From positions 1 through 63,828 of the forward strand of contig JBJMII010000085.1 of NCBI GenBank assembly GCA_045806925.1: DNA of 63,828 bases. Reading direction: 5' to 3'. The DNA comes from Mycobacteriales bacterium (lineage in GTDB: Bacteria; Actinomycetota; Actinomycetes; Mycobacteriales; CADCTP01). Numbering within the stretch: the stretch's first letter is position 1; every line of letters begins with the position of its first letter. Position numbers and translations under genes: made by a program. Of the stretch, positions 16,914 to 63,828 are shown in pieces. The notes beneath the pieces were generated by a model. The model did no database searches. It worked only from the letters and a program-made list of their open reading frames with translations, and had not been told where the DNA came from.

Positions 16914-17003
16914 CTAGCTGCTCACGACGGAGAAGTCCGTCGGCCGGGCGACGACCTCGGCCATCGCGCCCTCGACGAGGTCGGCCCGGGCCGCCGCCGT
17001 CAC
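16914..17003 (-). CDS. Possible 29-aa coupled peptide
   Basis: GTG overlaps the methyltransferase stop (GTGA); TAG ends 2 nt before the next start. No homology recognised. Confidence 0.25.
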   Translation of the reverse strand: MTAAARADLVEGAMAEVVARPTDFSVVSS

Positions 17004-17914: not shown

Positions 17915-17934
17915 CGCCCGGCTGCTCCTGTCTC

Positions 17935-18025
17935 GGGTCGGTCTGAGGGTCGGTCTGAGGGTCGGGCCTGAGGGTCGGTCCCAGGGTCGGGTCGGGGGGT
18001 CGGGTCCGGGGTCGAGGTCCGGGGG
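17935..18025. repeat. Degenerate 12-bp tandem repeat
   Basis: GGGTCGGTCTGA x2 followed by decaying GGGTCG-led copies. Confidence 0.75.
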
Positions 18026-18026
18026 A

Positions 18027-18854: not shown

Positions 18855-18865
18855 CAGGTCCTCCT

Positions 18866-19831: not shown

Positions 19832-19843
19832 GGCCTCCCCGGC

Positions 19844-29102: not shown

Positions 29103-30073
29103 TGACCGCACGGCCGCACCCCGCGCCGGTTGCCCCGGCGGCCCGGGGTGAGCACCCTGGCGCCGTGACGTTCCCTTCGGGTCGGCAGGTCGAGCTGCGG
29201 CACGGGACCCAGCGGGCGGTCGTGGTCGAGGTCGGCGGCGGCCTGCGGACGTACCGGCTGGACGGTGTCGACGTCCTGGACGGCTACGCCGAGGACCGGA
29301 TGTGCGACGGCGGCCGCGGCCAGCTGCTGATCCCGTGGCCGAACCGGATCGCCGACGGCCGCTACGAGCTGGCCGGCACCGGCTACCAGCTGGCACTCAC
29401 CGAGCCCGCGACCGGCAACGCGATCCACGGCCTGACCCGCTGGTCGCCGTGGCGGCTGGAGCAGCCGGCGGACGGGCGGGCGATCGGGTCCTGGGTGCTG
29501 CACCCGCAGCCCGGCTACCCGTTCCGGCTCGACTGCACGGTGACGTACCGGCTGGACGGCGCGGGCCTGTCCGTCACCATGGCCGTGGTCAACCGCGCCG
29601 ACCGGGACGCCCCGGTCGGGTTCGGTGCCCACCCGTACCTCGCCGCCGGTACCGGCCTGGTGGACGGCGCGCGGCTCCGGCTGCCCGCGTCGACCCGGCT
29701 GGTCACCGACGACCGGTCGATCCCGCGCGGGCGCGCGCCGGTCGACGGCAGCGAGTACGACTTCCGGGCCGAGCGCGCCATCGGCTCGACCGCACTGGAC
29801 ACCGCGTACGCCGACCTCGACCGGGACCCGGACGGGATGGCCCGGGTCCGGCTGTCCCGCGCCGACGGCCTGCAGGTCACGCTGTGGGCCGACGCGACCT
29901 TCAGCCACCTGCAGGTCTACACCGGCGAGACGCTGCCCGAGCCGCAGCGCCGGCGCGGTCTCGCGGTGGAGCCGATGAGCTGCCCGCCGAACGCCTTCGC
30001 CAGCGGCGACGGCCTGCGGCTGCTCGCCCCCGGTGGGACGCTCGCCGGCAGCTGGGGCATCACCACCGGGTGA
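29102..30073 (+). CDS. Aldose 1-epimerase family protein
   Basis: LIPWPNRI, NAIHG, GAHPY, QVYTG, AVEPM; TGATG coupling to the upstream gene. Confidence 0.9.
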   Translation: MTARPHPAPVAPAARGEHPGAVTFPSGRQVELRHGTQRAVVVEVGGGLRTYRLDGVDVLDGYAEDRMCDGGRGQLLIPWPNRIADGRYELAGTGYQLALTEPATGNAIHGLTRWSPWRLEQPADGRAIGSWVLHPQPGYPFRLDCTVTYRLDGAGLSVTMAVVNRADRDAPVGFGAHPYLAAGTGLVDGARLRLPASTRLVTDDRSIPRGRAPVDGSEYDFRAERAIGSTALDTAYADLDRDPDGMARVRLSRADGLQVTLWADATFSHLQVYTGETLPEPQRRRGLAVEPMSCPPNAFASGDGLRLLAPGGTLAGSWGITTG

Positions 30074-49322: not shown

Positions 49323-50264
49323 GTGCACCTGCGGGTGGGTCTGCACGCGGGCCAGCAGTTCGCCACCTTCGCCGAGTGTCTCGACCTGTGGGTGCGGGCG
49401 GAGGCGCTCGGCTACGACTGGGTGTCGGTCTTCGACCACTACCGACCGCCGCTCGGGGGTCCGGACGGGCCGTGTCTGGAGGGGCCGACCCTGCTCGCCG
49501 CGCTCGCCGCCCGGACCGGCAGGGTCCGCTGCGGCATGCTGGTGCTCGGCGTGCACCACCGGCACCCGGCCGCAGTGGCGTCCATCGCCGCGACGCTCGA
49601 CCAGGTCAGCGGCGGCCGGCTGGAGCTCGGGCTGGGTGCCGGCGGCCCGGACCTGGCGCACGAGCAGTGGGGACTGCCGTGGCCGGCGCCGGCCGACCGG
49701 GTCGCGCTGCTCGACGAGACCTGCCGGATCCTGCGCTCGCTGTGGCAGCGGGACCGGACGACGCACCACGGGCGCTGGTTCCGGCTGGAGGGGGCGACCC
49801 TTCAGCCCAAGCCGGTGCAGTCCCGGCTGCCGCTGGTCATCGGCGGCGCCGGGCCGCGGCTGCTGCGGGTCGCCGCGGAGCACGCCGACGTCTGGAACAC
49901 GCTGCCCGGCACGGTGCACCGCTACCGGGCGACCGCCGGGCTGCTGTCCGACCGGTGCGCCGACGTCGGCCGGGACCCGGCCGCGATCCGCCGGTCGATC
50001 ACGTTCCGGGCGGTGCTCGGGGAGACGCCGGCCGAGGTGTCGGCGCGGCGGGACGAGGTGTTCGGCCGGCTGCCGGCCGGGTCACCGGACCTCGCGGAGT
50101 ATCTCAGCGTCGGCACCCCGGAGCAGTGTGTCGCCGACCTGCTGCCGTACGCCGAGCTGGGTGTGCGGGACTTCCTGCTCGGGGCGCGGCCACCGGTCGA
50201 CTGGCGCACGGTGGAGCTGATGGCGACGGCCGTCGCTCCGGCCCTGCGGGCCGCGGTGGGGTGA
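49323..50264 (+). CDS. LLM-class (luciferase-like, possibly F420-dependent) oxidoreductase
   Basis: AEALGYD..DH, TLDQVSGGRLELGLGAG, PKPVQ, IGG, ADVWN. Confidence 0.9.
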   Translation: MHLRVGLHAGQQFATFAECLDLWVRAEALGYDWVSVFDHYRPPLGGPDGPCLEGPTLLAALAARTGRVRCGMLVLGVHHRHPAAVASIAATLDQVSGGRLELGLGAGGPDLAHEQWGLPWPAPADRVALLDETCRILRSLWQRDRTTHHGRWFRLEGATLQPKPVQSRLPLVIGGAGPRLLRVAAEHADVWNTLPGTVHRYRATAGLLSDRCADVGRDPAAIRRSITFRAVLGETPAEVSARRDEVFGRLPAGSPDLAEYLSVGTPEQCVADLLPYAELGVRDFLLGARPPVDWRTVELMATAVAPALRAAVG

Positions 50265-50270
50265 GCGCGC

Positions 50271-51317
50271 TCAGACCCGACCCGGCTCGTCGGCGCGGAA
50301 CGGGGCCCGGCCCAGCCGGCGGGCCACCCCGGCGGCGAGCGGCGCGGCGAAGCCGCCGTACACGAACGGGGACAGCTCCTCCGCCACGTCACCGGGCACC
50401 GGCAGCGTGACCAGGGCCTGCCCGGCGACGGCGGTGTCCGCCTCGTGCACCACGGCGACCACCCGGCGGCCGGCCGACCGGGCCCGGGCGGCGACCTCGG
50501 CGGCCCGGGCGTGCGCCCCGCCCGGGGGCGCGACCAGCACCACCGGCATGTCCAGCGGGTAGGCGAACCTCTCGACGTGCCACCACTCCTCGACGTCCTG
50601 GCCCACCGTGAGCGTCCCGGCGGCCTCCACCAGCTTCGCGGCCGCGAAGAGCGCGGTGCCGTGGCTCGGGCCGCCGCCGAGCACGACCGCGGCCGGCGAG
50701 CTGGCCAGCACTCCGGCGGCCTCCGCGCACGGGCCGGCGAGCACCTCCAGCGTGACCTCGAGCAGGTCCGCCGCGGCGGCGATCGGCTCCGCCGGGCGGC
50801 CTCCGAGGCGCAGCGCGAGCAGGGTGAGCCCGAGCAGGCTGGCCTGGTGCGTGCGGACACCGGCGGACCGTTCCGGCCGGGGCAGCTCGACCAGCACGGT
50901 GCGGTCCGCCGCGGCGCTGAGCGGGCTGCCTCCCGCACCGGTCACGGCCAGCGTCGTCGCGCCCGCCCCGGCCGCCGCGCGCAGCGCCCGCAGCACCCGC
51001 TCGGTCCGCCCGGACGCCGAGGTGCCCACCACCAGGGGGCGGCCCGGGCCGTCGAGGTGGAGCGCCGCGGCGCCGTACTCGGCGAACCGCAACGCGGGCT
51101 GCGGCTGGCAGGCCACGCCGGACCGTTGGAAGGCCAGCTCGGCGGCGTTGCCGGCGTGCAGCGAGTCACCGTCGCCGACCAGGTAGACCCGGGACGGGGA
51201 CAGCCCGCGCAGCGCGGCGTCCACCCGCCGGGTGACCACCGGCGTCAGCGAGCGCAGGTCGCCGACCAGCGCGGCGGACTGGCGCAGCAGCACGTCCGGC
51301 CCCGGCAGGTCAGCCAC
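50271..51317 (-). CDS. Double SIS-domain sugar-phosphate isomerase/deaminase (GlmS-C/FrlB-like)
   Basis: GDGDS, TSASGRT, KLVEAA, EEWWH. Confidence 0.82.
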   Translation of the reverse strand: MADLPGPDVLLRQSAALVGDLRSLTPVVTRRVDAALRGLSPSRVYLVGDGDSLHAGNAAELAFQRSGVACQPQPALRFAEYGAAALHLDGPGRPLVVGTSASGRTERVLRALRAAAGAGATTLAVTGAGGSPLSAAADRTVLVELPRPERSAGVRTHQASLLGLTLLALRLGGRPAEPIAAAADLLEVTLEVLAGPCAEAAGVLASSPAAVVLGGGPSHGTALFAAAKLVEAAGTLTVGQDVEEWWHVERFAYPLDMPVVLVAPPGGAHARAAEVAARARSAGRRVVAVVHEADTAVAGQALVTLPVPGDVAEELSPFVYGGFAAPLAAGVARRLGRAPFRADEPGRV

Positions 51318-52122
51318 GCGGCTCCAGCCCGCGCACGATCCCGACGTACGAGCGGACCCGCTCCACGTCGATCCGGCCGCCCCAGCCGCCGTCCTCCAGG
51401 CAGCTGCCGACGAACGCGCCGTCCACCCCGGCCAGCAGCCGGGCGGCACTCGCGTGGTCGGTGTGCCCGGACAGCAGGATCGGCAGGTCCGGGGTGACCG
51501 CGCGGACCGCGGCGACCGCCGCCAGCGTGCGCTCCGCGTCCGGGTGCCCGAGCGTCACGGCGTCGGCGCCGACGAGCCGGGCGGCGCGGGCCGCGGGCCC
51601 GGCGTGGTCCCGCTCGCCGGCCCAGCGGAACTGGCTGGAGTCGACGTCGGCGACCACCGCGACGTCCCAGGCGTCGATCTTCGCGCGGTACGCCATCACC
51701 GCCTCCGGGTCGGCCTCGACCGGCCCGTGCGCGCTCAGCGTGGCGCCGACCAGCGCCCCCGCCCGGACGAATGCGCCGCCGGCGGTCTTCGCCACCGCGA
51801 GCGACGCGCGCACCGCGTTGCGCATGATCTGCACGCCGACCGCGAACCCGGGCCGGGTGGCGTCCGCCACCGCGCGCACGATCAGCGCCATCGCCGCGGT
51901 CCGGGCCGGGTCCGCCTCGTCGCCGGTCGGGTAGACCCGGTCGACGGTCTGGACCAGGCAGCCGTCCGCACCACCGGCGTCCAGCGCCTGCGCCGAGCCG
52001 ACCGCGGTCCGCACGATCTCGTCCAGGCTCCCGGCCCGGTGGAACGGGGTGCCGGGCAACGGCTGCAGGTGCACCATGCCGATGACCAGCCGGTCTCCGG
52101 TACCCAGCCGCAGCTCCCCCAT
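51310..52122 (-). CDS. BtpA/SgcQ family TIM-barrel protein
   Basis: VIGMVHL.PLPGTP, GADG, DGAFVGS; TGATG coupling. Confidence 0.87.
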   Translation of the reverse strand: MGELRLGTGDRLVIGMVHLQPLPGTPFHRAGSLDEIVRTAVGSAQALDAGGADGCLVQTVDRVYPTGDEADPARTAAMALIVRAVADATRPGFAVGVQIMRNAVRASLAVAKTAGGAFVRAGALVGATLSAHGPVEADPEAVMAYRAKIDAWDVAVVADVDSSQFRWAGERDHAGPAARAARLVGADAVTLGHPDAERTLAAVAAVRAVTPDLPILLSGHTDHASAARLLAGVDGAFVGSCLEDGGWGGRIDVERVRSYVGIVRGLEPRG

Positions 52123-52976
52123 CAGCGGATCCGCAGCCGCTTCAGGTGCCGGCCGGACGGCGCGGCCCCGGTCGGCGCCGCCGTACGGCCGTGGAAGTAG
52201 CGCCGGTTGTCGACCACCACCACCATCCCGGGTGCCCAGCGCACTCCCGCCGCCGGACCGGGCCGGTAGAGCGCGGCGAGCAGCCGGCGCAGCACCGCGC
52301 CGACCTCGGCGGCGCCGGCGTCGCCGGTGTGCACCCAGTCCAGCCGCTCCCCGGCGAAGTCCCGGAACGAGAAGACCGTCCGGTCCCCCACCGTACGCAC
52401 GATGCTCGGCCCGGCGGTGCTCGCCCGGTAGCGGGTCTGCGCGAGCACGCCGAGCGAGCGCTCGTCCAGCGCCGCCGCCACCTCGGCCATCGGCACCAGC
52501 GCGGTCTGCGCGCCGACCGCACTCCGGCCGGGCTGCAGGCACATCAGCACGATGTAGCGCGGCTGGTCGGCGACCGGCCGGCCGCTGCCCTCCGAGTGCA
52601 GGGTGAGCGGGCCCTGCGAGAACGGCTGCAGCGCGACGTCCGCGGTCCGCCCGTGCAGGTCCCGGAGGTTGAGCACGACGCCGTCCTCGACGAACGGCTG
52701 CACCGCCGGGTCCAGTTCCGGGGTGAGCGTGCCGAGCAGCCTGCCCAGCGCCCGGAACTCGGCGGTGTCCAGCGACCGGTCCAGCGCGAGCACGGCCAGC
52801 CCGTCCCGGCCGAGCGCGGCCAGCACCCGGTCCGCCAGCAGCCGCGGACCGTCCGCGGCGGCTGCCGGCATCGGCTCCGGTGCCGGGCCCGGCAGCACCG
52901 CGCCCCGGTCGAGCAGCTCGGCTCGCAGCCGGACGTGCCGGTCGCCGGCGGCCTCCACGAACGAGCCGGTCAGCAC
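52122..52976 (-). CDS. TauD/clavaminate-synthase-like Fe/2OG dioxygenase
   Basis: LHSEGS (HxE), DNRRYFHGR, LKR; RBS GAGGTGG. Confidence 0.82.
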   Translation of the reverse strand: MLTGSFVEAAGDRHVRLRAELLDRGAVLPGPAPEPMPAAAADGPRLLADRVLAALGRDGLAVLALDRSLDTAEFRALGRLLGTLTPELDPAVQPFVEDGVVLNLRDLHGRTADVALQPFSQGPLTLHSEGSGRPVADQPRYIVLMCLQPGRSAVGAQTALVPMAEVAAALDERSLGVLAQTRYRASTAGPSIVRTVGDRTVFSFRDFAGERLDWVHTGDAGAAEVGAVLRRLLAALYRPGPAAGVRWAPGMVVVVDNRRYFHGRTAAPTGAAPSGRHLKRLRIR

Positions 52977-53093
52977 GAGGCCGAGTAGACCACCTCGCCC
53001 GGACCGCAGCCAGCGACCGCCCGCGCGGTTGTCCGGGCCCGGTCGTGGTCCGTACGGTGCGGGGAACCTCCTGCCGCTGCCGGAAGGACGGTC

Positions 53094-54041
53094 ATGGACC
53101 TCAAGTTCGACCCGGATCGGCACATCCGCAGCGTCCGGCACGGTCGCCTGGTCAGCCTGCTGGACTCCGAGCGGCGGGTGCTGCGCGGCGTCCGCGGGAT
53201 CGTCGGGGTGTTCGAGGAGCTCGACGACGGGACCGAGATCGGCGCGGACAGGCTGATCATGGAGTCGGGCTCGGAGTTCGAGCTGCACACGCACCCCGGC
53301 GCGCACATCCTCTACGTGCTGCGGTCGCGGGGCCACATCCACGTCGACGGCGTGGACTACGAGATCGGCGAGGGCGACACCGTCCTCGTCCCGGCGCGGT
53401 ACGTGCACGGCGTCCGGACCATGCGCTCGGTGGCCGCGCCGCTGGAGATCCTCGCCTTCGGGGTGCCGCACCTGCCGCTGGCGTCGGCGGAGCGGATGAC
53501 GCTGGTGAACCCGCCCCGCCCCGCGCCCGCCGACCAGGGCGGCGGCTCGTGGGAGGTGGCCACGGACCCGGCCGAGGTGCACCAGCTGCTGCACGACTCG
53601 GACGCCCACCAGGCCCGGCAGAGTGGCTCGCCGGTGCCGCAGCGGCAGCTGGAGACGACCGTGCGGCACGTCCGGGACGGCGCGGTCCACCTGCTGCGCC
53701 GGGACGGCGTGGCGGTGGCGATGTTCACGCTGAGCTGGTCGCCGGCATTCGACGAGGACGAGTCGATCTTTCCGATCGCGGTCCGGGCGGCGTACCTGTC
53801 CCGGCTCTCGGTCGCTCCGGCGGCGCTGGCGAGCGGATCCCTGGACGGCCTGCGGTGCGTCCGCCGGGCTGTCGAGCTGGCCGCCGAGGCCGGCGCGGAC
53901 GCGCTGCGCTGCGAGGCCAACCCGGACCTGGCCGGGACCCGGGCCATGCTCGACCGGCTCGGCTTCGTGCAGTGCGGGCCGGTGCACGCCGACGACCGCG
54001 GCCGCCGGTGGGTCTACCTGCACCGGCCGCTGGTGGCCTGA
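53094..54041 (+). CDS. Cupin + GNAT fusion protein
   Basis: HTHPGAHILYV..G..VPARYVHG cupin; C-terminal YLSRLSV..LRCE..LDRLGF GNAT-like region. Confidence 0.75.
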   Translation: MDLKFDPDRHIRSVRHGRLVSLLDSERRVLRGVRGIVGVFEELDDGTEIGADRLIMESGSEFELHTHPGAHILYVLRSRGHIHVDGVDYEIGEGDTVLVPARYVHGVRTMRSVAAPLEILAFGVPHLPLASAERMTLVNPPRPAPADQGGGSWEVATDPAEVHQLLHDSDAHQARQSGSPVPQRQLETTVRHVRDGAVHLLRRDGVAVAMFTLSWSPAFDEDESIFPIAVRAAYLSRLSVAPAALASGSLDGLRCVRRAVELAAEAGADALRCEANPDLAGTRAMLDRLGFVQCGPVHADDRGRRWVYLHRPLVA

Positions 54042-54047
54042 CCCGGG

Positions 54048-54947
54048 TCAGCGCCCGCCCGGGACCGGCCGCCAGCCGTGCCCGCGCTGCTCGGCGACGT
54101 ACGCGCGCAGCAGCGCCGCGGCGGTGCCGTCACCGATCGGCGTGTCCGGTGCCGGGTGCACGAACAGCGGCAGCGAGACCCGGGACGACCGGTCGCCACC
54201 GGCCGGCGGGTTGCGTACCCGGTGCTCGACCGCCGGGTAGTGGCCGCCGGTGGCGGCCTGCAGCAGCAGGCCGCCGTTCACCACCGCCGAGCGGGGCGGC
54301 AGCGGCAGGTCCCGCCACCGCCCGGCCGGGTCGCGGACCTGGAGGCCGGGACGGCTGGGCGCGGGCAGCACGGTGAGCAGGTTGACGTCCTGGTGCGCCG
54401 CGGCCCGCAGCCGGCCGGCCGGCGGGCGGTCCACCGGCACGTAGTGCTGGATGCGCAGCAGCGAGCCGGTGGCGCCGGAGACCATCGCGTCCAGCGGCAC
54501 CGCCGGGCGGGCGGCCGCGGGCAGCCCGTCCTGCAGCCAGCCGAGCAGCGTGCGGGCCAGCCGCAGCGCGCCGGTGAGGTAGTCCCGCGCGGCCGGACCG
54601 ACCTCGACCGGGTAACGCCCACCGACGCGCAGGTGGAAGTACTCCTTGCGGTCCCGGCCGGCCGCGGCGTCCTCGGGCCGGCTCGGGAAGTAGCCGCCCG
54701 GCTCCCCCGGGTGGGCCAGGTACGCGTGCTTCGCCGGGGTGCCGAAGAAGTCGAGCCACTCCGCCGGGATGGCCGCGGCCAGGTCGGCGAGCCGGTCCGG
54801 CAGCGCGAGCACGGCCAGCCCGCACTCGTGCATCGAGCCGGCGAAGCGCGCCGGCGCGCCCGACCCGGCGACGTCGACGCTGACGGGTCGGCCGGAGCCG
54901 ACGCGGACCGGCCCGGCGGGGTCGCCGGTCCCGGCGGCGGGGGTCAC
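54048..54947 (-). CDS. Isopenicillin-N-synthase-like Fe/2OG oxygenase
   Basis: DRKEYF, LLRIQHY, AHQD, GLQV, HRV, RVSLPLF. Confidence 0.87.
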   Translation of the reverse strand: MTPAAGTGDPAGPVRVGSGRPVSVDVAGSGAPARFAGSMHECGLAVLALPDRLADLAAAIPAEWLDFFGTPAKHAYLAHPGEPGGYFPSRPEDAAAGRDRKEYFHLRVGGRYPVEVGPAARDYLTGALRLARTLLGWLQDGLPAAARPAVPLDAMVSGATGSLLRIQHYVPVDRPPAGRLRAAAHQDVNLLTVLPAPSRPGLQVRDPAGRWRDLPLPPRSAVVNGGLLLQAATGGHYPAVEHRVRNPPAGGDRSSRVSLPLFVHPAPDTPIGDGTAAALLRAYVAEQRGHGWRPVPGGR

Positions 54948-56632
54948 CGCGCGCCGGGCGGCGCCGGGTCGCCGTCGTCCCGGTCCCGCAGCGTCTCGGC
55001 GAGCTGCGGCCGCAGCACCTTGCCGGTGGGCGTGCGCGGGATCCGCTCCAGCCGGACGATCCGGCGCGGGCCCAGCCGGGCCGGCAGCGCGGCGCCCAGC
55101 GCCGCCCGGACCCGCTCGTCCAAGCCGTCCGCGCCGTCCGCGCGGGCGGGGCCGTCCAAGCCGGCGGGGCCGTCCGGGCCGGCGCCGGTCACGATGCCGG
55201 TGACGATCCGTTCGCCCAGGAACCGGTCCGGAACGGCGACGCTGGCCGCGTCCCGGATCCCCGGGACGCTCAGCAGCACCCGGTCGATCTCCTCCAGCGA
55301 GACGCTCTCGCCCTGGACCTTGGCCACGTTCTTGGTCCGGCCGGTGAGCACGAGGTGCCGCCGGCCGTCCGCGCCGACCACCTCGTGGCCGAGGTCCCGG
55401 GTGTGGAACCAGCCGCCGGCGAAGGCCTCGGCGGTCGCCTCCGGATTGCCCAGGTAGCCGGTCATCACGTTGTGCCCGCGGACGCAGACCTCGCCCCGGG
55501 TGCCCGGCGGGGCCGGCTGCCCGTCCACCAGCACGGCGACCTCGTTGCCGGTCACCGCGGTGCCCACCGCCGGCACCTCGGCGTCCAGCACCAGCCGCCG
55601 GTACTCCGGCTCGGGCAGGTCGACCGGCAGCGTCGTGGCGAAGTTGACCGTCTCGGTCAGGCCGTAGCCCTGGACCACCCGGACGCCGAGCCGGTCCAGC
55701 ACGGCCCGCGCGGTCCGGGCCGGCAGCGGGGCGGCGGCCGAGACCAGGTGGTCGAGCCCGGCCGGCGGCGGCCGCCGCCAGGTCTCGACGAGCGCCTCCA
55801 GGATGCTCGGCACGACGCTGGCGACCCGGGGCCGGAACCGCTCCACCAGGCCCGGGTAGCCGAAGGGGTCGAAGCCGCCGGCGAGCACCGCGTGCGCGCC
55901 GGACCACAGGGTGCCGAGCAGGGTGAAGTGCAGGCCGTTGACGTGGTGCACCGGCAGGCAGCCGAGGAACCGGTCGCCGGCGGACAGCCGGTGGTGCCGC
56001 CGCACCGCCTCGGCGTTGACCACCGCGTTGTAGTGCGACTGCACCACCAGCTTGGACTCCGCGGTGGACCCCGATGTGCCGAAGCACAGTGCTGCCGACG
56101 CCGGGTCGAGGTCCGCCGCCGGAGGTGTGGGCCGGTCCGGCAGCGCCGCCGGTGCGGGCAGCGGCAGCGCCTCCGGCAGCGCGCCGGCCGGCACCGCCGG
56201 GGACCGCAGGGCGAGCCGCGCGCCGGCCGCCCGCAGCTGCCGGCGGTGCCGGTCGGGCGGCCCGTCCGGCGGCAGCAGCAGCGCCGGGCAGCCGGATCGC
56301 AGCAGCGCCAGCACGGCGAGTGCCGACGGCAGGTCGTTGACCGGCAGCAGGCCGACCGGCTCGCCGGGCCGGAGCTCGAGGTCGGCCCGCAGCCAGCCGG
56401 CCAGGCGGCCGGTCAGCTGGCCGACCTCCGCGTACGTCACCGTGCCCGCCGACCCGTCCGGTGCGACGGCGGTGAGGTACGGGTCGCCGCCCCGGCGCGC
56501 CGCCTGCTCCTCCAGTCGCGCGGCGAGCGTCGGCGGGATCGGCAGCCGGTCGGCGAAGCGCCGGCCGCGCCACCGGTGGGCGAGCTCGGCGTCGGAGCCG
56601 ACCGCCCAGCCCGCCCGCGGAGCGCTCGTCAT
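54944..56632 (-). CDS. Class I adenylate-forming enzyme (acyl-CoA/acyl-ACP ligase)
   Basis: GTSGSTAESK, GYGLTE, WFHTRDLG, GRTK, PRTPTGK. Confidence 0.92.
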   Translation of the reverse strand: MTSAPRAGWAVGSDAELAHRWRGRRFADRLPIPPTLAARLEEQAARRGGDPYLTAVAPDGSAGTVTYAEVGQLTGRLAGWLRADLELRPGEPVGLLPVNDLPSALAVLALLRSGCPALLLPPDGPPDRHRRQLRAAGARLALRSPAVPAGALPEALPLPAPAALPDRPTPPAADLDPASAALCFGTSGSTAESKLVVQSHYNAVVNAEAVRRHHRLSAGDRFLGCLPVHHVNGLHFTLLGTLWSGAHAVLAGGFDPFGYPGLVERFRPRVASVVPSILEALVETWRRPPPAGLDHLVSAAAPLPARTARAVLDRLGVRVVQGYGLTETVNFATTLPVDLPEPEYRRLVLDAEVPAVGTAVTGNEVAVLVDGQPAPPGTRGEVCVRGHNVMTGYLGNPEATAEAFAGGWFHTRDLGHEVVGADGRRHLVLTGRTKNVAKVQGESVSLEEIDRVLLSVPGIRDAASVAVPDRFLGERIVTGIVTGAGPDGPAGLDGPARADGADGLDERVRAALGAALPARLGPRRIVRLERIPRTPTGKVLRPQLAETLRDRDDGDPAPPGAR

Positions 56633-56707
56633 CCGACCGGTGCCTCCTGCTGCGCGGGCGCGTGACGACAGCCGCCGAAGCGTGCCGACGGTGCCAGACT
56701 ACGAGCC

Positions 56708-57871
56708 ATGTACGCCTATGACGAGATCCGTCACGTACATCTGGAACCCACCAGCCGGTGCAACGCCGGCTGCCCGATGTGCGCCCGGAACTCCTGCGGC
56801 CGGCCGGCTCCCGGGCTGCGGCTGACCGAGCTGTCGGCCGCGGACGTGCGGGCCATCCTGCCGGCCGACTTCCTGGCCCACGTCGAGGGCTTCGACCTCT
56901 GCGGCGCGTACGGCGACCCGGCGCTGACCACCGAGCTGACCGACATCCTCGAGCACGTCCGCGGCGGCTCGCCGGACTGCCTGGTCACGCTCTACAGCAA
57001 CGGCGGCATCCGGTCGGCCGGCTGGTGGCGGCGGCTCGCCGGCGTCCTCGGTCGGCCCGGCCGGGTGGTGTTCGCCATCGACGGGCTGGGCCGGACCAAC
57101 GGGATCTACCGGCGCGGGGTCGACTACGACAAGGTGATCGAGAACGCGACCGCGTTCATCGACGCGGGCGGCGAGGCGCGCTGGGAGTTCCTCGCGTTCC
57201 GGCACAACGAGCACCAGGTGGCCGAGGCCCGCGCGGTCAGCGAGCGGCTGGGCTTCGCCGAGTTCTCGGTGAAGAAGACGCAGCGGTTCCTGGAGCCGAC
57301 CTACGACCACGTGCCGGAGGTCGCCCGCGGCGGCGGCGACCTGAGCCGGTTCCCGATCTACAGTTCCGCCGGGACGGTCGTCGGGCACCTGGAGCCGCCG
57401 GCCGACCCGCAGCTGGTCAACCGCACCGCCGCCGCCTTCCCCGAGCTGGTGGCCGAGCACGGCTCACTGGACGCGCTGTTCTCCGCCACCCCGATCTCCT
57501 GCCCCGTGCTGGACACCGCGAGCGTGTTCGTCGGCGCGCAGGGTTACGCCTTCCCCTGCTGCTGGACGTACGTGCAGGCGACCCGCCCGGCACTCAACGG
57601 CTTCCGGCCCGACGCGGACCGGCAGACCTACGACCTGGTGCAGGCCACCGGAGGCTTCGAGGCGATCGACGCCCGCCGGGTGGGCCTGCGCGCCGCCGTG
57701 CACAGCGAGCTGTTCGCCGCGATCGAGCGGAGCTGGTCGTGCTCGTCGGTCGGCGAGGGCAAGCTCAAGGTCTGCGCGCGGGCCTGCGGCACCCGCTTCC
57801 CGGCGTACTTCGACCAGTTCGTCTCGGTCGACCTGCTCCCCCGGTCGCTGTACCGGCCGGCCGCCGGCTGA
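56708..57871 (+). CDS. Radical SAM protein with C-terminal twitch/SPASM-like Cys
   Basis: CNAGCPMC (CxxxCxxC), GDP, SNG, IDG; C-terminal CP..G.AFPCC..CARAC. Confidence 0.9.
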   Translation: MYAYDEIRHVHLEPTSRCNAGCPMCARNSCGRPAPGLRLTELSAADVRAILPADFLAHVEGFDLCGAYGDPALTTELTDILEHVRGGSPDCLVTLYSNGGIRSAGWWRRLAGVLGRPGRVVFAIDGLGRTNGIYRRGVDYDKVIENATAFIDAGGEARWEFLAFRHNEHQVAEARAVSERLGFAEFSVKKTQRFLEPTYDHVPEVARGGGDLSRFPIYSSAGTVVGHLEPPADPQLVNRTAAAFPELVAEHGSLDALFSATPISCPVLDTASVFVGAQGYAFPCCWTYVQATRPALNGFRPDADRQTYDLVQATGGFEAIDARRVGLRAAVHSELFAAIERSWSCSSVGEGKLKVCARACGTRFPAYFDQFVSVDLLPRSLYRPAAG

Positions 57872-57881
57872 GCGGCCCGGC

Positions 57882-58880
57882 TCAACGCGCCGAGAAGGCG
57901 TACGTGGTCCGCCACCGCTGCACCTCGCCCGGGTCGATCCGGGCGCTCGGGAAGTCCGGCCGGTTCGGCGCGTCCGGCCACGGTCCTGGCTGCAGGCACA
58001 GCCCGGCCCGCGGGCGCCGGTAGCCGTCGGCGGAGTAGACCCCCAGCCCGCTGTGGTCGGTGTGCACGGACAGCACCCGGCCGCTGGCCGGGTCGTGCAG
58101 CTCGGCGGCCGGCCCGGCACCGGGGACGAAGAAGGCGTCGAGCACGGTACGGCCGATCGGCCGGCCCCGGCCGAAGTCCAGCGACGAGCCGGCGACGTCG
58201 CGCGGCGGCCCGGGCAGCGGCACGAACCCGGCGTCGGCGGCCAGCACGCGGGCCGACGGCAGCCGGAGCAGGTGCCGGTCCACCGGCCCGGCGCCGGCGA
58301 GGTTCCAGAACGCGTGCGTGGTCAGCCCCCAGACCGTGCTGGCGGTGGTGCTCGCCCGGTGCTCGACCACCAGCCGGCCGGCCGCGACCCGGTACTCGGT
58401 CTCGGCGGTCAGCTCGCCCGGATAGCCCTGGTCACCGTCGGGGCTGCGCAGCCGCAGCAGCACGGCCGGCTCGCCCCCCACGGTCGCGTCCTCGGCGGCC
58501 CACACGTGCCGGTCGAACCCGGCCGGACCGCCGTGGATGTGGTGCGGGCCGGCATTGCGGGCCAGCCGGTGCTCGACCCCGTCGAGCCGGAAGCGGCCGC
58601 GGCGGATCACCCGGCAGAACCGGCCGAGGGTGGCGCCGACGTAGTCGCGCCGGCCCAGGTCGAGGTGCGCGGCGAGCGGCAGCCGGAGCAGCACGTCGCC
58701 GGGCCGCCCGCGCCGGTCCGGCACCCGGACCCGGGCCAGCGACGCCCCGTAGGTCCACACCGTCACCACCGGCCCGGCCCCGCCGGGATCGAGCGTGTAG
58801 GCCTCGACCTCGACCGGTCCACGGCAGCCGGGTGCGATGCCGACCGGCTCGCGCCGGACCCCCCGGCGCCCCGCACCCAT
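57882..58880 (-). CDS. Aldose 1-epimerase (mutarotase) family protein
   Basis: GATLGR, HIHGG, DGDQGYPG, TTHAFWNL; CLQP where CLE is typical. Confidence 0.87.
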   Translation of the reverse strand: MGAGRRGVRREPVGIAPGCRGPVEVEAYTLDPGGAGPVVTVWTYGASLARVRVPDRRGRPGDVLLRLPLAAHLDLGRRDYVGATLGRFCRVIRRGRFRLDGVEHRLARNAGPHHIHGGPAGFDRHVWAAEDATVGGEPAVLLRLRSPDGDQGYPGELTAETEYRVAAGRLVVEHRASTTASTVWGLTTHAFWNLAGAGPVDRHLLRLPSARVLAADAGFVPLPGPPRDVAGSSLDFGRGRPIGRTVLDAFFVPGAGPAAELHDPASGRVLSVHTDHSGLGVYSADGYRRPRAGLCLQPGPWPDAPNRPDFPSARIDPGEVQRWRTTYAFSAR

Positions 58881-58904
58881 GCGGGCAGTATGGGCTCCGC
58901 GTGC

Positions 58905-60473
58905 TCAGCCGCCGGTGCCGACCGCGGCCCGCTCCTGCAGCCGGCTGATCGCCGCCCGCAGCTCCGGCCAGCGGCGGGCCGAGGTGACCCGGACGACCGA
59001 CCCGGACAGGCAGAAGGTCAGGATGCCGGGCAGGACCGACACCCCGGTCTCCCGCAACAGCTGCCGGAAGCACAGGTAGGAGTCGTCCCACTCGGCGAAC
59101 CGGACCGCCGCGTTCACCGACCAGTGCGGCCGCAGCACGTCCGCGACCGCGGACAGGCCGGACACCGCGGCGTCCCGGAGCACCCGCAGGCCGTCCTCCC
59201 GGCCGGCGCGGTCGGCCAGGTAGCTGTCGTACGCCGCCTGCAGGTGCCGCCCGGTCAGCCCGTACGTCGGCTCGAACTCGGCCAGGTGCGCACCGGAGAG
59301 CTGCCCGTCACCGGCCACCCGCCAGCGCTCCATCCGGGCCAGCACCTCGACCAGCGTGTAGAGCACCGACGGCGGACCGCCGTACGTCGTCGAGGCGTAC
59401 TCGTAGTACTCCGCGACGAACCTCGGGTCGGCCAGCAGCCAGCCGATCTTCAGGCCGGGCGCCGACCAGTTCTTCGACAGGCTCGACACGCGCACCACGT
59501 TCGGCGCGCACCGGGCCGGTGAGCACCGGCGCCCGGGGCCGAGCCACTCGTGGCACTCGTCCAGCACGACGGTGGTGGCCGGCGACGCGGCGTGCACGAG
59601 GCGGCCCAGGTCGGCCTCCGTGACGGCGGCGCCGGTCGGGTTCCCGACGGTCTGCAGCAGCACCAGCGGGGTGTCCGGGCGCAGCGCGGCGATCAGCGGC
59701 TGGAGGCCGGTCTCGCCGCCGTCCGACGCCAGCGGGACCAGCCGGACCGGCCGGCGCCGGGCCACCGCCTCCACCAGCGGCGGGTAGTTCGGGACCGCGC
59801 ACAGCGCGACGCCGGCGGTGGCCGCCGTCGAGCTGAGCACGAAGTCGGCGACCGAGCTGACCGCCATCGTGCCGCCCATCGTCAGCGCGACGTTGCCGGC
59901 GTCGTACGGCTCCCGGCCGAGCAGCGCGTTCTCGTAGCGGGCCACCGCCTCCCGGACGGGCAGCCGGCCGCGCGAGTCGGAGTAGCCGTACCAGTCCTGG
60001 GCGAGGGCGAAGCGGACGCAGTCCTTCAGCGTCCCCGGCAGCCCCCAGGCCTGCTCGTCGACCGCCCCGCCGGACAGGACGACGTCGGCGCTCGCCCGCA
60101 GGTCTCCGTAGAGGTCGTCCCGGAAGAACCAGTTGAACAGCTCCTTGACGAAGCGCGCGGTGCCGGCGCCGGAGAGCACCTCGTCCGGGTGCACGGTGCG
60201 CAGGACCGGCCGGGACCGCCACCGCTCCGCCAGCCAGGGCCGGTGCCCGTGCCGCCCGAGCTCGCACTCGACCCGGCCCAGCCAGAGGTCGCGCAGCTCG
60301 AACGGGTCGCCCGGGTCGCGGGCGCGCCGGTAGACGTCGAGCACCCGGTCGTCCACCCCGGTCCGGAACCGGTCCCCGAGCCGGCCGGGTGCCGGTGCCC
60401 GGCGGGCGGCCAGCCGCGCGTCGTCGGGCAGCTCCGGTGCGCGCGCCGGCGGTGGTGGGTCGAACAGTGGCAT
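58905..60473 (-). CDS. Fold-type I PLP enzyme (aminotransferase class I/II) with N-terminal extension
   Basis: GYSDSRG, GNPTG, DECH, SLSK..PGLKIGW, LPG..RV. Confidence 0.85.
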   Translation of the reverse strand: MPLFDPPPPARAPELPDDARLAARRAPAPGRLGDRFRTGVDDRVLDVYRRARDPGDPFELRDLWLGRVECELGRHGHRPWLAERWRSRPVLRTVHPDEVLSGAGTARFVKELFNWFFRDDLYGDLRASADVVLSGGAVDEQAWGLPGTLKDCVRFALAQDWYGYSDSRGRLPVREAVARYENALLGREPYDAGNVALTMGGTMAVSSVADFVLSSTAATAGVALCAVPNYPPLVEAVARRRPVRLVPLASDGGETGLQPLIAALRPDTPLVLLQTVGNPTGAAVTEADLGRLVHAASPATTVVLDECHEWLGPGRRCSPARCAPNVVRVSSLSKNWSAPGLKIGWLLADPRFVAEYYEYASTTYGGPPSVLYTLVEVLARMERWRVAGDGQLSGAHLAEFEPTYGLTGRHLQAAYDSYLADRAGREDGLRVLRDAAVSGLSAVADVLRPHWSVNAAVRFAEWDDSYLCFRQLLRETGVSVLPGILTFCLSGSVVRVTSARRWPELRAAISRLQERAAVGTGG

Positions 60474-60588
60474 CTGGGTTCCCGGTGCGTCGAGGCAGGG
60501 GCGGCACCCGCCACGGCGGGTGCGGCCGCGGCGCCGGGCGCGGTCCGGCGACCACGGCCGCCGGCCCCCGGCCGGTTAGATTGCCGAC

Positions 60589-60840
60589 ATGGGCGACCTC
60601 ATCGCGGCGGTCGCCGCCGTGGCCCGACGGCACCTGCCGGCGGAGGCCCGGGCCGCGGCGGTCGACCAGGACACCGACCTCGCCGAGCTCGGCCTCGACT
60701 CGGTGCGCGTGGTGGGCTTCATGGTGGACGTGGAGCGCACCTTCGCCGTCTCCTTCCCGGACCAGCTCGTCGACGCCGCGACCTTCCGCACGCCGCGGGC
60801 GGTCGCAGAGGCGGTCCGGACGCTGCGCGGCGCCGGCTGA
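60589..60840 (+). CDS. Stand-alone acyl/peptidyl carrier protein
   Basis: LGLDSV..VE..F..FPD..F.TP; TAGATT 6 nt before the ATG. Confidence 0.9.
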   Translation: MGDLIAAVAAVARRHLPAEARAAAVDQDTDLAELGLDSVRVVGFMVDVERTFAVSFPDQLVDAATFRTPRAVAEAVRTLRGAG

Positions 60841-60990
60841 TCCCGTGCCACCCGGCGCCTCGCGCCGGTTCCCGGAATCTATCCTGCTGCCCCGGCGCCC
60901 GGGCCGGGCTCGGGAAGTCGCCGGCGCCAGCGCGGTCGCTTCGGGCGGCCCGGTCTTGCGACCCGGCGCGGCGGACACCAGGCTGGCGGC

Positions 60991-62343
60991 GTGTCGGCCA
61001 GCAGGAGCCGGTCCTCCCCGTTGCTGGCGGCGACCGTGCAGAACGCGAGACGCTCGCCGCTGTACGCGGCCGACCCGGACTGGCAGGCGGTGGCCGCGGG
61101 AGCCGGGGCGTTCGAGGACCTCCCGTTGATGACGAAGGAGATCTACCGCAGCCGCAGCACCGACCTCCTGCAGCCGCCGGACGTCGCGATCCAGCACACC
61201 AAGGGCACGACCGGGGAGGTCACCTTCCGCTACCGCAGGGCCGGCGACGCCGAGTTCCTGGCCGGCGTCCTCGCGGCGGTGTGGGAGTCCGGGTACGAGC
61301 CCTCGGTGCGGCGCCCGCTCGTGCTGCGCGAGCTGGACGGCTCGCACGGCGGCCCGGTGGCGGAGGCGGCCGGCACCGGCGTCCTCACCGCCAGCGACGA
61401 TCCCGCCGGGTTCGAGCGGGCGGTGCACCTGCTCACCCGGCGGTTCCGCGTCGCCGGCCTCGGCGACCGGGTCGCGGTCGTCTCCGGCCGGCTCCGCTTC
61501 CTGATCATCCTGACCACGACGCTACGGGAGCGCGGCATTCCCGCGGCGTCGCTCGGGGTCGGCGCCGTGCTCACCTACGGCAGCTTCGTCTCCCGCCGCT
61601 GGCGCGCCTTCCTGGAGGACTTCTGGGGGGTGGGCCTGCTCGACTCGTACTCGCTCTCCGAGATCTTCGGCTCGGCCACCAGGTGCCCGGACTGCGGGGA
61701 CTACCGCTTCGACGAGCCCTCGGTGCACGCCGAGTTCGTCAGCCCGGCGACCGGGGGGCCGGTGGACGAGGGGTGGGCGGTGCCGGTCCTCACCGAGCTC
61801 TACCCCTTCGTGACGCACGAGCCGCTGGTCCGGTACTGGACGGGCGACCTGGTCCGGCTGGATCCCCGCGGCTGCTGCGGGCCCGGCTCCTTCGCGGTGA
61901 AGGGACGGCTGGAGTCCGCGGTCCGCGACCTGGACCGCACACCGGCGCGGGTGCTCGTGCCGTGGACGGAGCTGGTCGAGGTCCTCGAGGACGTCGAGGG
62001 TCTCGCCTGGGAGGTGGACCCCTTCGACTGGTCCACCCGGGACCAGCGGGTCAGCGCGGCGCTGCGGGCCGCCCCGCTGGGCGTACCGCAGATCGCCACC
62101 CGGGTCCGCGAGGCAGCGCCCGGCGTCCGCCGGATCGAGCTGGACGCCGTGGTTCCGGACTGCCGCGCGGGCGGCGGGGAGCAGGTCGCCGAGCACCTGC
62201 GGCAGCGCCTGCTGGTCGGCTGCGCGCTGCTGGCGGAGGCGGTGCAGGAGGGGGCCTACCAGCTGCACGTCCGGGTCGTGGACCGGCTCCGGCCCCGACC
62301 GGGGCGGGAGGCGAGGACGCTGATCGACCGGATGGGCAGCTAG
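60991..62343 (+). CDS. Phenylacetate-CoA-ligase-like (PaaK-type) adenylate-forming enzyme
   Basis: LPLMTK, TKGTTG, YSLSE, PLVRYWTGD, KGR. Confidence 0.8.
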   Translation: MSASRSRSSPLLAATVQNARRSPLYAADPDWQAVAAGAGAFEDLPLMTKEIYRSRSTDLLQPPDVAIQHTKGTTGEVTFRYRRAGDAEFLAGVLAAVWESGYEPSVRRPLVLRELDGSHGGPVAEAAGTGVLTASDDPAGFERAVHLLTRRFRVAGLGDRVAVVSGRLRFLIILTTTLRERGIPAASLGVGAVLTYGSFVSRRWRAFLEDFWGVGLLDSYSLSEIFGSATRCPDCGDYRFDEPSVHAEFVSPATGGPVDEGWAVPVLTELYPFVTHEPLVRYWTGDLVRLDPRGCCGPGSFAVKGRLESAVRDLDRTPARVLVPWTELVEVLEDVEGLAWEVDPFDWSTRDQRVSAALRAAPLGVPQIATRVREAAPGVRRIELDAVVPDCRAGGGEQVAEHLRQRLLVGCALLAEAVQEGAYQLHVRVVDRLRPRPGREARTLIDRMGS

Positions 62344-62358
62344 GGCCGGCCCGCCCCG

Positions 62359-62407
62359 GGCCTCAGGGCCTCAGCGGCCTCAGGGCCTCAGGGCCTCAGG
62401 GCCTCAG
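62359..62407. repeat. 8-bp tandem repeat (6 units) including the PhyH stop
   Basis: GGCCTCAG x6 with one inserted C. Confidence 0.9.
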
Positions 62408-63150
62408 CGGCCGGTGCGCAGGCCGTCCCGGGCGACCTGCTCGGCCCGGTCCATGGCCGCCTGGTCGATCCGCGCGCTCGCGCCCTCGAACGTCATGGCG
62501 AAGGCGGCGCGGGACCGGGACCGGGAGCGGTTGGGCAGCGCCCGGTGGACGGTCACCGGATGGTGGGCGACGGCGTCGCCGGCCCGGAGCTCGACCACGA
62601 CCTCGGCGGCCTCCTCGGCCGCCGAGAAGTCGGTGATGCCGAGCGAGAAGCCCCGGACCCCGGTGAAGGCGTGCGGCCGCATCCCGCGTCGGTGCGAGCC
62701 GGGGAGATACCGGAGGCAGCCGTTCTCCAGGTCCACCGGCTCCGTGGCGAGGAAGATCTGCGTCCCGCTCGGCGGGGTCAGGCAGAAGGCGATGTTGTCC
62801 TGGTGCGGCGGGGTGGGGTGGTCGGCGCCGGCCGGCTTGTTGAGCCACATCGGCGGCCGCGCGGTCACCGGCTCCCCCAGCAGCGCGCCGGCCAGGGCCA
62901 CCCAGCGCGGGTCGCGGCGGTAGTCCTCGAAGAACGGGTCGACATTCATCCGGTGGATCTGCCGGACCACCCGCCGGCCGTCCGGGAACTCGTGCCGGAA
63001 GACTTGGCTCGCCGGCAGCCCCGGCACGACCTCCCGCAGGAACCGGTCGATTTCCGAATTCAGCCGGTCCAGGTCGTCCGGCCCGAGGAATTCGCGGACC
63101 ACGACATAGCCGTCCCGGTCGTATCGCGGCTTGTGCTCGGAGTAGTCCAC
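62404..63150 (-). CDS. Phytanoyl-CoA dioxygenase (PhyH) family Fe/2OG enzyme
   Basis: YDRDGYVV, NKP..TPPHQD, ENGCL..PGSH, VHRALPNRS..R. Start uncertain. Confidence 0.9.
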   Translation of the reverse strand: MDYSEHKPRYDRDGYVVVREFLGPDDLDRLNSEIDRFLREVVPGLPASQVFRHEFPDGRRVVRQIHRMNVDPFFEDYRRDPRWVALAGALLGEPVTARPPMWLNKPAGADHPTPPHQDNIAFCLTPPSGTQIFLATEPVDLENGCLRYLPGSHRRGMRPHAFTGVRGFSLGITDFSAAEEAAEVVVELRAGDAVAHHPVTVHRALPNRSRSRSRAAFAMTFEGASARIDQAAMDRAEQVARDGLRTGR

Positions 63151-63177
63151 GCTGCTGCCGATCCCGACGCCCGAGTC

Positions 63178-63206
63178 TTGACAGAGCCGGCGAATAGTAG
63201 CATAGT
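63178..63206 (+). promoter_or_regulatory. Principal-sigma-type promoter
   Basis: TTGACA-N17-CATAGT in an AT-enriched intergenic region upstream of 63318. Confidence 0.6.
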
Positions 63207-63317
63207 ATTTCGCCGAGAGGCAAGCCGACTCATTGTCGTGGGGGGCGCCATGGATCCGCGGGCCGGCGCGCGAAATGCCTTCCGGGAGTCGTGTCCCGCC
63301 GCCGTCCGGAGCATTCC

Positions 63318-63828
63318 GTGACGATCGGGCTGGCGCGCCGCATCCCGAACCCGCGATTTCTCTGTCTCTACGCCCCCTTGCAGTACACCCCGGAGGAGGT
63401 GATCCGGCCGGACAGCTCGCTCGGCCTGCCCTACCTGTACGCCGCCCTCGCCGCGGCCGGCTTCGAGGTGAGCCTGCTCGACACCAGCATCGGCCGGCCC
63501 GACCGGGACCGGCTGGCCGACACCTTCTACCGGCGGACGCCGCTGCCCGAGATCTCACCCGACCACTTCCGCATCGGGATGACCCCCGAGCGGATCCTCG
63601 AGGAGGTCGAGGACTTCGACGTCGTCGCGGTGAGCTCGATCTTCACCCAGCAGACGTCGCGCTGCCTGGAGATCGGCCGGCTGGTCAAGCAGGCCTACCC
63701 GGACAAGATCCTCATCGCCGGCGGCGTCAACGCGCGGAGCCTGAAGTCGGTCTTCTTCGACCACGGCTACGACGTGGTGTTCGTCTCGGAGTCGGAGAAG
63801 CCGCTGGTCGCCTTCGCGTCGTTCCTGA
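63318..63828 (+). CDS. Cobalamin-binding protein, probable class B radical SAM enzyme (N-terminal part, runs off the window)
   Basis: Hand translation: SLGLPYL..L...GFEV.LLD, RIGMT, DVVAVSSIFT, VKQAYP..I.AGG.NA, DVV..ESE. Open to the window edge; the CxxxCxxC motif is not reached. Confidence 0.85.
   Translation, partial: MTIGLARRIPNPRFLCLYAPLQYTPEEVIRPDSSLGLPYLYAALAAAGFEVSLLDTSIGRPDRDRLADTFYRRTPLPEISPDHFRIGMTPERILEEVEDFDVVAVSSIFTQQTSRCLEIGRLVKQAYPDKILIAGGVNARSLKSVFFDHGYDVVFVSESEKPLVAFASFL

Follow-up and report, generated by a model that had tools for sequence, protein, structure and literature searches.

A predicted NAD-derived azaindane gene cluster with a recurring B12 radical SAM tailoring module in a Mycobacteriales bacterium

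Here we describe a biosynthetic gene cluster (BGC) of 14 contiguous genes that runs from position 49323 to the right-hand end of contig JBJMII010000085.1 of a Mycobacteriales bacterium (assembly GCA_045806925.1). The window, meaning the whole stretch of DNA that was analysed, is this entire contig (63,828 nucleotides; C85 below), one of 222 in a genome of 3.96 Mb with 75% GC and an estimated completeness of 80%. Judging by its sequence, the cluster encodes homologues of nine proteins of the altemicidin (sbz) pathway together with extra tailoring enzymes, and there is good reason to expect that it makes a new azaindane alkaloid from beta-nicotinamide adenine dinucleotide (beta-NAD) and S-adenosylmethionine (SAM). 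With sbz counterparts for nine of its 14 genes, it is referred to as an ‘NAD-BGC’. Nine homologues of one characterized pathway in close neighbourhood are well outside chance.

Core genes shared with the altemicidin pathway

Altemicidin biosynthesis starts when SbzP joins beta-NAD and SAM by [3+2] annulation to form the azaindane core, and PseP is used as the structural stand-in for SbzP (PMC13518217). The pyridoxal phosphate (PLP)-dependent protein of the window is the homologue of these two, and so the predicted scaffold-forming NAD + SAM annulase. In the PDB it matches PseP (8K3H) with 545 bits and an E-value (E) of 1e-162; the runner-up scores 39 bits. Its residues F117, Y122, W161, R170, K334 and Y404 align with PseP F413, Y418, F457, R466, K629 and Y699, of which K629 is catalytic and the other five are binding residues (PMC13518217). 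Thus, the catalytic lysine and four of the five substrate-binding residues are unchanged, and the sole change places tryptophan at F457, as is usual in the family (51 of 54 aligned rows). The family, about 520 residues long, gave 292 matches at E <= 1e-20 among 8000 candidates scored, and a TauD domain is fused to three of the 120 matches listed. The cluster is patchily distributed: at E <= 1e-60, SbzP was detected in none of 12 genomes of the same genus and in one of 400 of the same order. A preliminary description of this DNA had called the cluster unrecognized and had seen no signature scaffold enzyme; neither statement survives the PLP protein and the nine sbz homologues.

Two sbz-type sequences, PseP (8K3H) and SbzI (8ZT3/8ZT4), were compared directly, and the remaining proteins were represented by a proxy, locus L022, whose open reading frames (ORFs) match the sbz order and the sbz Table 1 lengths. 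By manual count, the GNAT protein of this locus and SbzI have different residues at 15 of 187 positions. The nine window proteins are 39–62% identical to the proxy (P and O 62%, F and I 60%, L 57%, H 56%, Q 51%, N 49% and G 39%).

Further details agree with these assignments. The TauD protein carries an HxE...H motif and has a single PDB match, the SbzQ-like N-terminal domain of PseP (E 4e-61). Residues 143–313 of the cupin fusion, a half without any Pfam match, were identified by their match to SbzI (E 6e-56; entries reported in PMC11685415, partial text). Docking placed SbzI R48, D86, E138, N140, D164, R168 and R170 at the dinucleotide site (same partial text); the GNAT domain keeps the first six and has tryptophan in place of R170. 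The carrier protein retains Ser38, and its six SbzI-contact positions (41, 42, 45, 46, 61 and 66) are all hydrophobic. The SbzL-like ligase differs from the proxy SbzL at 3 of 40 positions in three pocket-lining stretches. For the protein encoded at 49323..50264, the best NCBIfam matches are F420-dependent luciferase-like monooxygenase (LLM) models, below cut-off, and an F420 ligase gene was found in the genome. The three proteins with SIS, BtpA and mutarotase folds match SbzN, SbzO and SbzH, which strip ADP-ribose off a pathway intermediate (PMC13518217); the published pathway agrees with the account in PMC11610977.

Two expectations of the preliminary description bear on this core. That this is a carrier-protein-dependent small-molecule pathway without a nonribosomal peptide synthetase (NRPS) or polyketide synthase (PKS) is borne out. 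The same cannot be said of its central proposal, in which a sugar-phosphate-derived unit is joined to an oxidized acyl unit and a known scaffold enzyme is missing. It is true that the SIS, BtpA and mutarotase proteins have sugar-handling folds, and NRPS and PKS genes are lacking, but these three are the counterparts of the published ADP-ribose-removing trio and the PLP enzyme, a homologue of SbzP/PseP, keeps its catalytic residues, so that this proposal is now highly improbable.

The core genes travel together elsewhere. We gathered 51 SbzP loci, taking 10 kb on either side of relatives of the PLP protein where the contig permitted, and searched them with tblastn at E <= 1e-4. Homologues of the TauD gene were found in 47, SIS and BtpA in 45 each, the ligase in 42, LLM in 39, mutarotase and cupin in 35 each, and GNAT and the carrier protein in 30 each. 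None of these loci contains a match to either of the two genes that lie left of 49323, and the left boundary already proposed at that position is therefore correct.

The predicted B12 tailoring module and the probable right flank

Five genes have no sbz counterpart: those for a 2-oxoglutarate (2OG) oxygenase, a PhyH protein, a B12 enzyme, a radical SAM enzyme of 387 residues and a PaaK-like ligase. In the 51 loci, the 2OG gene recurs six times, PhyH five (three of them close), the B12 gene five, the radical SAM gene once and the PaaK-like gene never. The extra oxygenase carries an HxD...H...R motif, and its gene and the radical SAM gene are interleaved with core genes.

The last two of the five are rare extras. 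The radical SAM enzyme scores 24 bits against Pfam Radical_SAM, below the 29.5 cut-off, and has a CxxxCxxC motif at residues 18–25; C265, C285, C356 and C360 are nearly invariant in 71 sequences. Its model is confident (predicted local distance difference test 96), with SkfB and BlsE as best folds at 17–18% identity, which is remote. It belongs to a sizeable family, with 680 clusters at E <= 1e-30. The enzyme occurs in 2 of 50 SbzP genomes, once beside SbzP, in L052, where the homologue is 66% identical; another homologue (50%, genome G090) has no SbzP match in the roughly 38 kb around it; membership of the family is thus not restricted to NAD-BGCs. The PaaK-like protein has weak matches to NCBIfam PaaK-type models and an adenylate-forming fold (template modelling (TM) score 0.67–0.74 to AMP-binding/PaaK models), and just two homologues were found among 8000 candidates scored.

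The B12 gene is present in 5 of the 50 SbzP genomes (locus L055 excluded), always within the cluster. When 400 further genomes from the family of L048 were searched with the B12 protein only, one new genome, G300, was found, and its locus turned out to be a complete NAD-BGC that includes genes for PhyH, a carbamoyltransferase, a HemK-like methylase and a 2OG enzyme. In all six other NAD-BGCs of this B12 type (L041, L042, L044, L045, L048 and G300, with L044 stopping at a contig edge), the B12 enzyme, a carbamoyltransferase and a PhyH orthologue occur together. Likeness to the window and its probable flank is 70–77% for the B12 radical SAM enzyme, 63–70% for the carbamoyltransferase and 54–59% for PhyH; a HemK-like methylase is present in four of the six and the extra 2OG gene in three. 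The six differ from the window in lacking the 387-residue radical SAM enzyme and the PaaK-like ligase in the fetched stretches. L041, L042 and G300 further differ in having no cupin match there and a glutamyl-tRNA synthetase (GluRS) paralogue, and L041 and L042 in having another radical SAM gene and a glycosyltransferase gene between PhyH and the B12 gene. In a quick SbzP tree, which left the position of the window row unsettled, the B12-type clusters are spread over two or more distinct, well-supported branches, which suggests that the module moves as a unit. A metagenome scan with the B12 fragment gave one weak locus among at least 596 pattern matches.

We also considered whether the B12, carbamoyltransferase and PhyH trio is independent of the core, as TauD and BtpA are not near SbzP in L044 and L045. 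This idea was dropped: in each genome both genes lie together on a contig other than that of SbzP (G074:C175 and G075:C44).

The preliminary description took the B12-binding protein for a probable radical SAM enzyme and expected the cluster to run past the window. Since the window is the whole of C85, the B12 gene is truncated by the contig end. Its fragment is 70–73% identical to full-length B12 + Radical_SAM proteins of about 520 residues in L041–L048, whose genes are followed by a carbamoyltransferase gene. With this N-terminal fragment as query, no other piece of the gene was found in the genome at E <= 0.001. Contig C156 carries a carbamoyltransferase gene that begins 365 bases from the contig end and is followed by a methyltransferase gene, and the 31 codons just upstream of the former match the C-terminus of the B12 family. 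Among 120 proteins compared, the same two, P0136 and P0135, are closest both to the N-terminal fragment (81% and 80%) and to the C156 tail (83% and 81%). Near-identical pieces of C85 and C156 occur in the same four soil DNA runs from one study, at like depth (about 2–8); the best of these runs may derive from the source sample, and no RNA run was among those listed. It is very probable that the cluster continues from C85 into C156. Both expectations stand.

The C156 carbamoyltransferase is 61–64% identical to those of L041, L045 and L048, and in the PDB it matches best to GdmN, to a novobiocin carbamoyltransferase and to the O-carbamoyltransferase TobZ. In the methyltransferase there is an NPPF motif, which marks nitrogen methylases, and its matches to HemK-type models are weak. 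A possible precedent in pactamycin biosynthesis for pairing a carbamoyltransferase with a HemK methylase (PtmB/PtmD) was not confirmed in the literature and is not relied on; a review calls PtmD an O-methyltransferase.

Several other features of C156 and the related clusters were observed. The outermost 260 or so bases at the end of C156 (L064:11978-12336) encode a histidine-kinase fragment in frame with the 31-residue B12 tail; this fusion is probably an assembly mis-join. Farther in, a seven-gene operon (L064:1367-8874) converges on the methyltransferase gene of the cluster. It encodes a candidate precursor, a 110-residue peptide ending in GGGGYY and weakly like Os1348/Franean1_4349-type precursors (scores < 0.9), along with two radical SAM enzymes, a nucleotidyltransferase, a DUF6365 glycosyltransferase-like protein, a pyruvyl-transferase-like protein and a KedN5-like B12 radical SAM enzyme. 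It looks like a separate, possibly glycosylated pathway for a ribosomally synthesized peptide with post-translational modifications (RiPP); a literature search for DUF6365 found nothing.

In two of the B12-type clusters there is a second SbzP copy (L045, 3041-4591; L048, L071:1-1593) in which the catalytic lysine is replaced by arginine. These copies are 51–54% identical to the window SbzP homologue, and the main SbzP of L045, L048 and L044 has histidine at the Y699 position. The Lys-to-Arg copies are possibly pseudo-enzyme partners, or NAD-binding enzymes with another job. Three B12-type clusters have in-cluster GluRS paralogues (L065:11858-13498, L067:9646-11283 and L080:12321-13955), and other clusters have paralogues of the cysteinyl (L035:13626-15116) and alternative valyl (L052:11750-14251) synthetases. 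It is possible that such paralogues hint at the targets of those clusters' products; tRNA-synthetase genes in NAD-BGCs have been noted before (PMC9516700, partial text).

Predicted pathway and alternative readings

The direct results are gene content, homology, kept residues and co-occurrence, from which we infer every reaction that follows. First, the PLP enzyme would condense SAM with NAD to give an azaindane dinucleotide, which the TauD enzyme would then hydroxylate at C2. The SbzL-like ligase would charge the carrier protein with a small polar acid, which the GNAT domain would transfer to the C1 amine. The BtpA, SIS and mutarotase proteins would remove ADP-ribose, and the F420 enzyme would reduce the ring. 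By analogy with sbz, annulation, C2 hydroxylation, carrier-dependent N-acylation, ADP-ribose removal and F420 reduction are all predicted with considerable assurance.

The origin of the acyl group has less support. SbzM and SbzJ make 2-sulfamoylacetate from cysteine (PMC6331615 and PMC10989515, partial texts), and the fused short cupin may likewise convert cysteine to this acid or a near relative; for 2-sulfamoylacetate or a relative as the acyl group, the chances are about even. The window cupin has the HTHPGxH..H motif in common with the proxy SbzM and belongs to a short clade of about 140 residues. Among the 51 loci, 19 have a long (SbzM-type) cupin, 15 a short one and 17 neither; none has both, though kin among the loci are not independent. 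This mutual exclusion fits a substitute role and does not by itself establish the same reaction. The cupin–GNAT fusion recurs in L020, 1 of 11 loci having both domains. Downstream of the cupin-less L042 cluster we also found a ComA phosphosulfolactate synthase gene (L068:962-1714), which might supply a sulfonate acyl group there.

The late steps of sbz would be replaced. PhyH or the extra 2OG enzyme may add hydroxyls, one of which the C156 carbamoyltransferase would O-carbamoylate; the HemK-like enzyme would N-methylate the carbamate or a ring nitrogen, and methylation of an unactivated carbon would fall to the B12 radical SAM enzyme. The 387-residue radical SAM enzyme and the PaaK-like ligase would make further changes. 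SbzI requires a free C2 hydroxyl (PMC11685415, partial text), so that carbamoylation at C2, if any, would come after acylation. Going by enzyme families, this combination of hydroxylation, O-carbamoylation, N-methylation and radical C-methylation is somewhat favoured. On balance we also lean toward regarding the window cluster and its six relatives as a second branch of NAD-derived products, in which the B12 radical SAM enzyme, PhyH and the carbamoyltransferase jointly tailor the scaffold to an unreported C-methylated, (methyl)carbamoylated azaindane by uncharacterized radical chemistry on a cofactor-derived ring.

Two other readings start from the same extra genes. In one, the radical SAM and oxygenase enzymes rebuild the skeleton by contraction, expansion or decarboxylation, so that the product is NAD-derived and no longer an azaindane. 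Two radical SAM and two extra Fe/2OG enzymes without sbz counterparts would be available for this, the B12 enzyme is not near any solved methylase, and the top matches of the 387-residue enzyme include the nucleoside decarboxylase BlsE (profile E 1e-4, fold E 2e-10). However, that match has 17% identity and a TM score of 0.46, and SkfB scores equally; the homologues of the azaindane-acting SbzQ, I, N, O, H and F are all kept at 49–62%, and the substrate residues of SbzI are largely intact. We consider a rebuilt skeleton unlikely. In the other, altemicidin or desmethyl-altemicidin is what the core produces, and the five extras and the C156 genes are passengers or part of the neighbouring peptide-modifying operon. 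The ligase pocket almost identical to that of the proxy SbzL, the separate radical-SAM-rich operon directly beside the C156 methyltransferase and the lack of a link between the PaaK-like gene and any other NAD-BGC all speak for it. It is nevertheless very unlikely, given that the B12 enzyme, carbamoyltransferase and PhyH accompany SbzP in six of six other genomes with the B12 enzyme, and the extra 2OG and radical SAM genes lie between core genes. The peptide-operon genes have no close match in the compared NAD-BGC loci, B12-type loci included; the sole match is 31% over 59% of one radical SAM enzyme. Nor was an orthologue of SbzE, the ring N-methyltransferase, found in this 80%-complete genome (best match 27%, on another contig), and the same is true of SbzJ.

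For a tailored azaindane, several points have to be set on the other side of the balance. The 51 loci were gathered by peptide patterns from the window PLP protein and are partly kin. No listed contig from the four soil runs bridges C85 and C156, and the PaaK-like gene was not found in any compared cluster (the 51 loci and the B12-type clusters). As the B12 enzyme has no close solved relative, its proposed methylation is a guess from the enzyme family. The assignment of the acyl group is tentative: the cupin is 37% identical to the proxy SbzM over 90 residues and lacks its N- and C-terminal extensions. The best candidates for SbzJ in the 80%-complete genome reach 35–37%, compared with 62–85% for orthologues in other loci, and none is on C85 or C156; SbzJ is within 10 kb in just 5 of the 15 short-cupin loci. 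Finally, the ligase pocket is similar across nearly all NAD-BGCs, cupin-less ones included, and so does not identify the acid.

Other sbz functions were also looked for. An SbzK orthologue was not found in the 80%-complete genome. There is no aminoacyl-tRNA synthetase gene (SbzA-like) in the window or on C156; elsewhere in the genome there are one isoleucyl-tRNA synthetase and one GluRS gene, and no second GluRS was found. No cluster gene is annotated as part of an SbzB/C/D beta-methylphenylalanine module, a comparison made at annotation level. A self-resistance lead, two types of valyl-tRNA synthetase in the genome with alt_ValS also in the L052 cluster, was set aside: alt_ValS matched 13 of 13 genomes of the genus, 10 of them over the cut-off.

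Gene inventory, surroundings and comparison with known systems

All 14 genes listed below are confirmed and of the kinds given in the preliminary description, 13 by Pfam and the PaaK-like gene by weak NCBIfam matches and fold. In the ten ORFs whose listed coordinates equal the gene coordinates, third-position GC is 0.95–0.98.

Features of the cluster in the window (positions in nucleotides)
Feature	Position	Strand	Basis
F420-type luciferase-like reductase, SbzF homologue	49323..50264	+	Pfam Bac_luciferase
SIS-domain protein, SbzN homologue; start codon inferred	50271..51317	-	Pfam SIS
BtpA-family protein, SbzO homologue; start overlaps TauD stop	51310..52122	-	Pfam BtpA
TauD-type Fe/2OG dioxygenase, SbzQ homologue; start codon inferred	52122..52976	-	Pfam TauD
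Short-clade cupin fused to SbzI-type carrier-protein-dependent GNAT acyltransferase	53094..54041	+	Pfam Cupin_2; SbzI match
Extra 2OG-Fe(II) oxygenase without counterpart in sbz; start codon inferred	54048..54947	-	Pfam 2OG-FeII_Oxy
Adenylation enzyme, SbzL homologue	54944..56632	-	Pfam AMP-binding
Radical SAM enzyme, 387 residues, predicted auxiliary cluster (SPASM/twitch type); no sbz counterpart	56708..57871	+	CxxxCxxC
Aldose 1-epimerase-like (mutarotase) protein, SbzH homologue	57882..58880	-	Pfam Aldose_epim
PLP-dependent SbzP/PseP homologue, 522 residues, predicted NAD + SAM [3+2] annulase	58905..60473	-	Pfam Aminotran_1_2; PDB 8K3H
Carrier protein, SbzG homologue	60589..60840	+	Pfam PP-binding
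Orphan PaaK/CapK-like adenylate-forming enzyme, pathway membership uncertain	60991..62343	+	Weak NCBIfam PaaK matches; fold
Short tandem repeat of GGGCCTCA (6.6 copies) where the convergent PaaK-like and PhyH genes meet	62358..62412	.	
Fe/2OG dioxygenase of the PhyH family, belonging to the B12 tailoring trio; start codon inferred	62404..63150	-	Pfam PhyH
B12-dependent radical SAM enzyme, N-terminal third of about 520 residues; start codon inferred	63318..63828	+	Pfam B12-binding

Just left of the cluster (47011-48666, minus strand) is a gene for a 551-residue protein whose start resembles a signal peptide; it has no Pfam or NCBIfam match and was not found in the 51 related loci. Farther away, a minus-strand operon at 17003-22305 encodes a DegT-type aminotransferase, an MFS transporter, a sulfotransferase, a short-chain dehydrogenase and a methyltransferase, which may form a small pathway for an amino sugar or a sulfated metabolite. 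Another aldose 1-epimerase gene, of the ordinary kind, lies at 29102-30070 (plus strand), its product being 31% identical to the proxy SbzH versus 56% for the cluster copy.

That NAD can serve as a natural-product building block is recent knowledge, and among the known NAD-derived members are an inhibitor of a tRNA synthetase and a compound with antitumour/acaricidal activity. SbzP homologues occur in more than 200 genomes, and clusters with radical SAM and Fe/2OG genes have been called promising; according to the same 2026 review, no NAD-derived compounds have been isolated beyond altemicidin, SB-203207 and SB-203208 (PMC13518217). SbzP homologues have been reported to cluster with radical SAM, PhyH, amidotransferase, glycosyltransferase and GluRS genes, and a figure of that paper may already depict a B12-type cluster (PMC9516700, partial text). 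In the portions of that and the other texts covered, no product or enzyme of a B12-type NAD-BGC is described. Literature on SbzP with NAD, altemicidin and azaindane yielded no other NAD-BGC product in titles or the beginnings of abstracts, subscription journals being mostly outside the search, and nothing was found that combined three or more of NAD-BGC, SbzP, cobalamin-dependent radical SAM and carbamoyl. With altemicidin core genes and extra radical, oxygenase and carbamoyl-transfer genes side by side, the product is likely a not-yet-isolated relative of that antibiotic family. The recurrence of the B12, carbamoyltransferase and PhyH module, also in named Streptomyces isolates, makes the question of what else NAD-BGCs make directly testable.

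The closest characterized system is the sbz cluster of Streptomyces sp. NCIMB 40513, which makes altemicidin, SB-203207 and SB-203208 (PMC6331615, partial text; PMC13518217). The preliminary description had raised the question of synteny with a characterized cluster; such likeness is found in gene content (9 of 14 genes at 39–62%), with residues kept in the P, I and G proteins, whereas the order differs, being shuffled into alternating units, and five genes are unmatched. The 80%-complete genome yielded no orthologue of SbzJ, SbzK or SbzE, the window and C156 have no tRNA synthetase gene, and the cupin is of the short clade and fused to GNAT. The window adds the extra 2OG oxygenase, PhyH, the SPASM-type radical SAM enzyme, the PaaK-like ligase and the B12 radical SAM enzyme, and C156 adds the carbamoyltransferase and the HemK-like methyltransferase. 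By sequence, then, this is not the altemicidin cluster. PsePQ (PDB 8K3H/8K3I), a Pseudomonas SbzQ–SbzP fusion, matches window proteins over both halves (P, E 1e-162; Q, E 4e-61); in the window these are separate genes, 6 kb apart. The cluster is a member of the known NAD-BGC class with an uncharacterized tailoring module.

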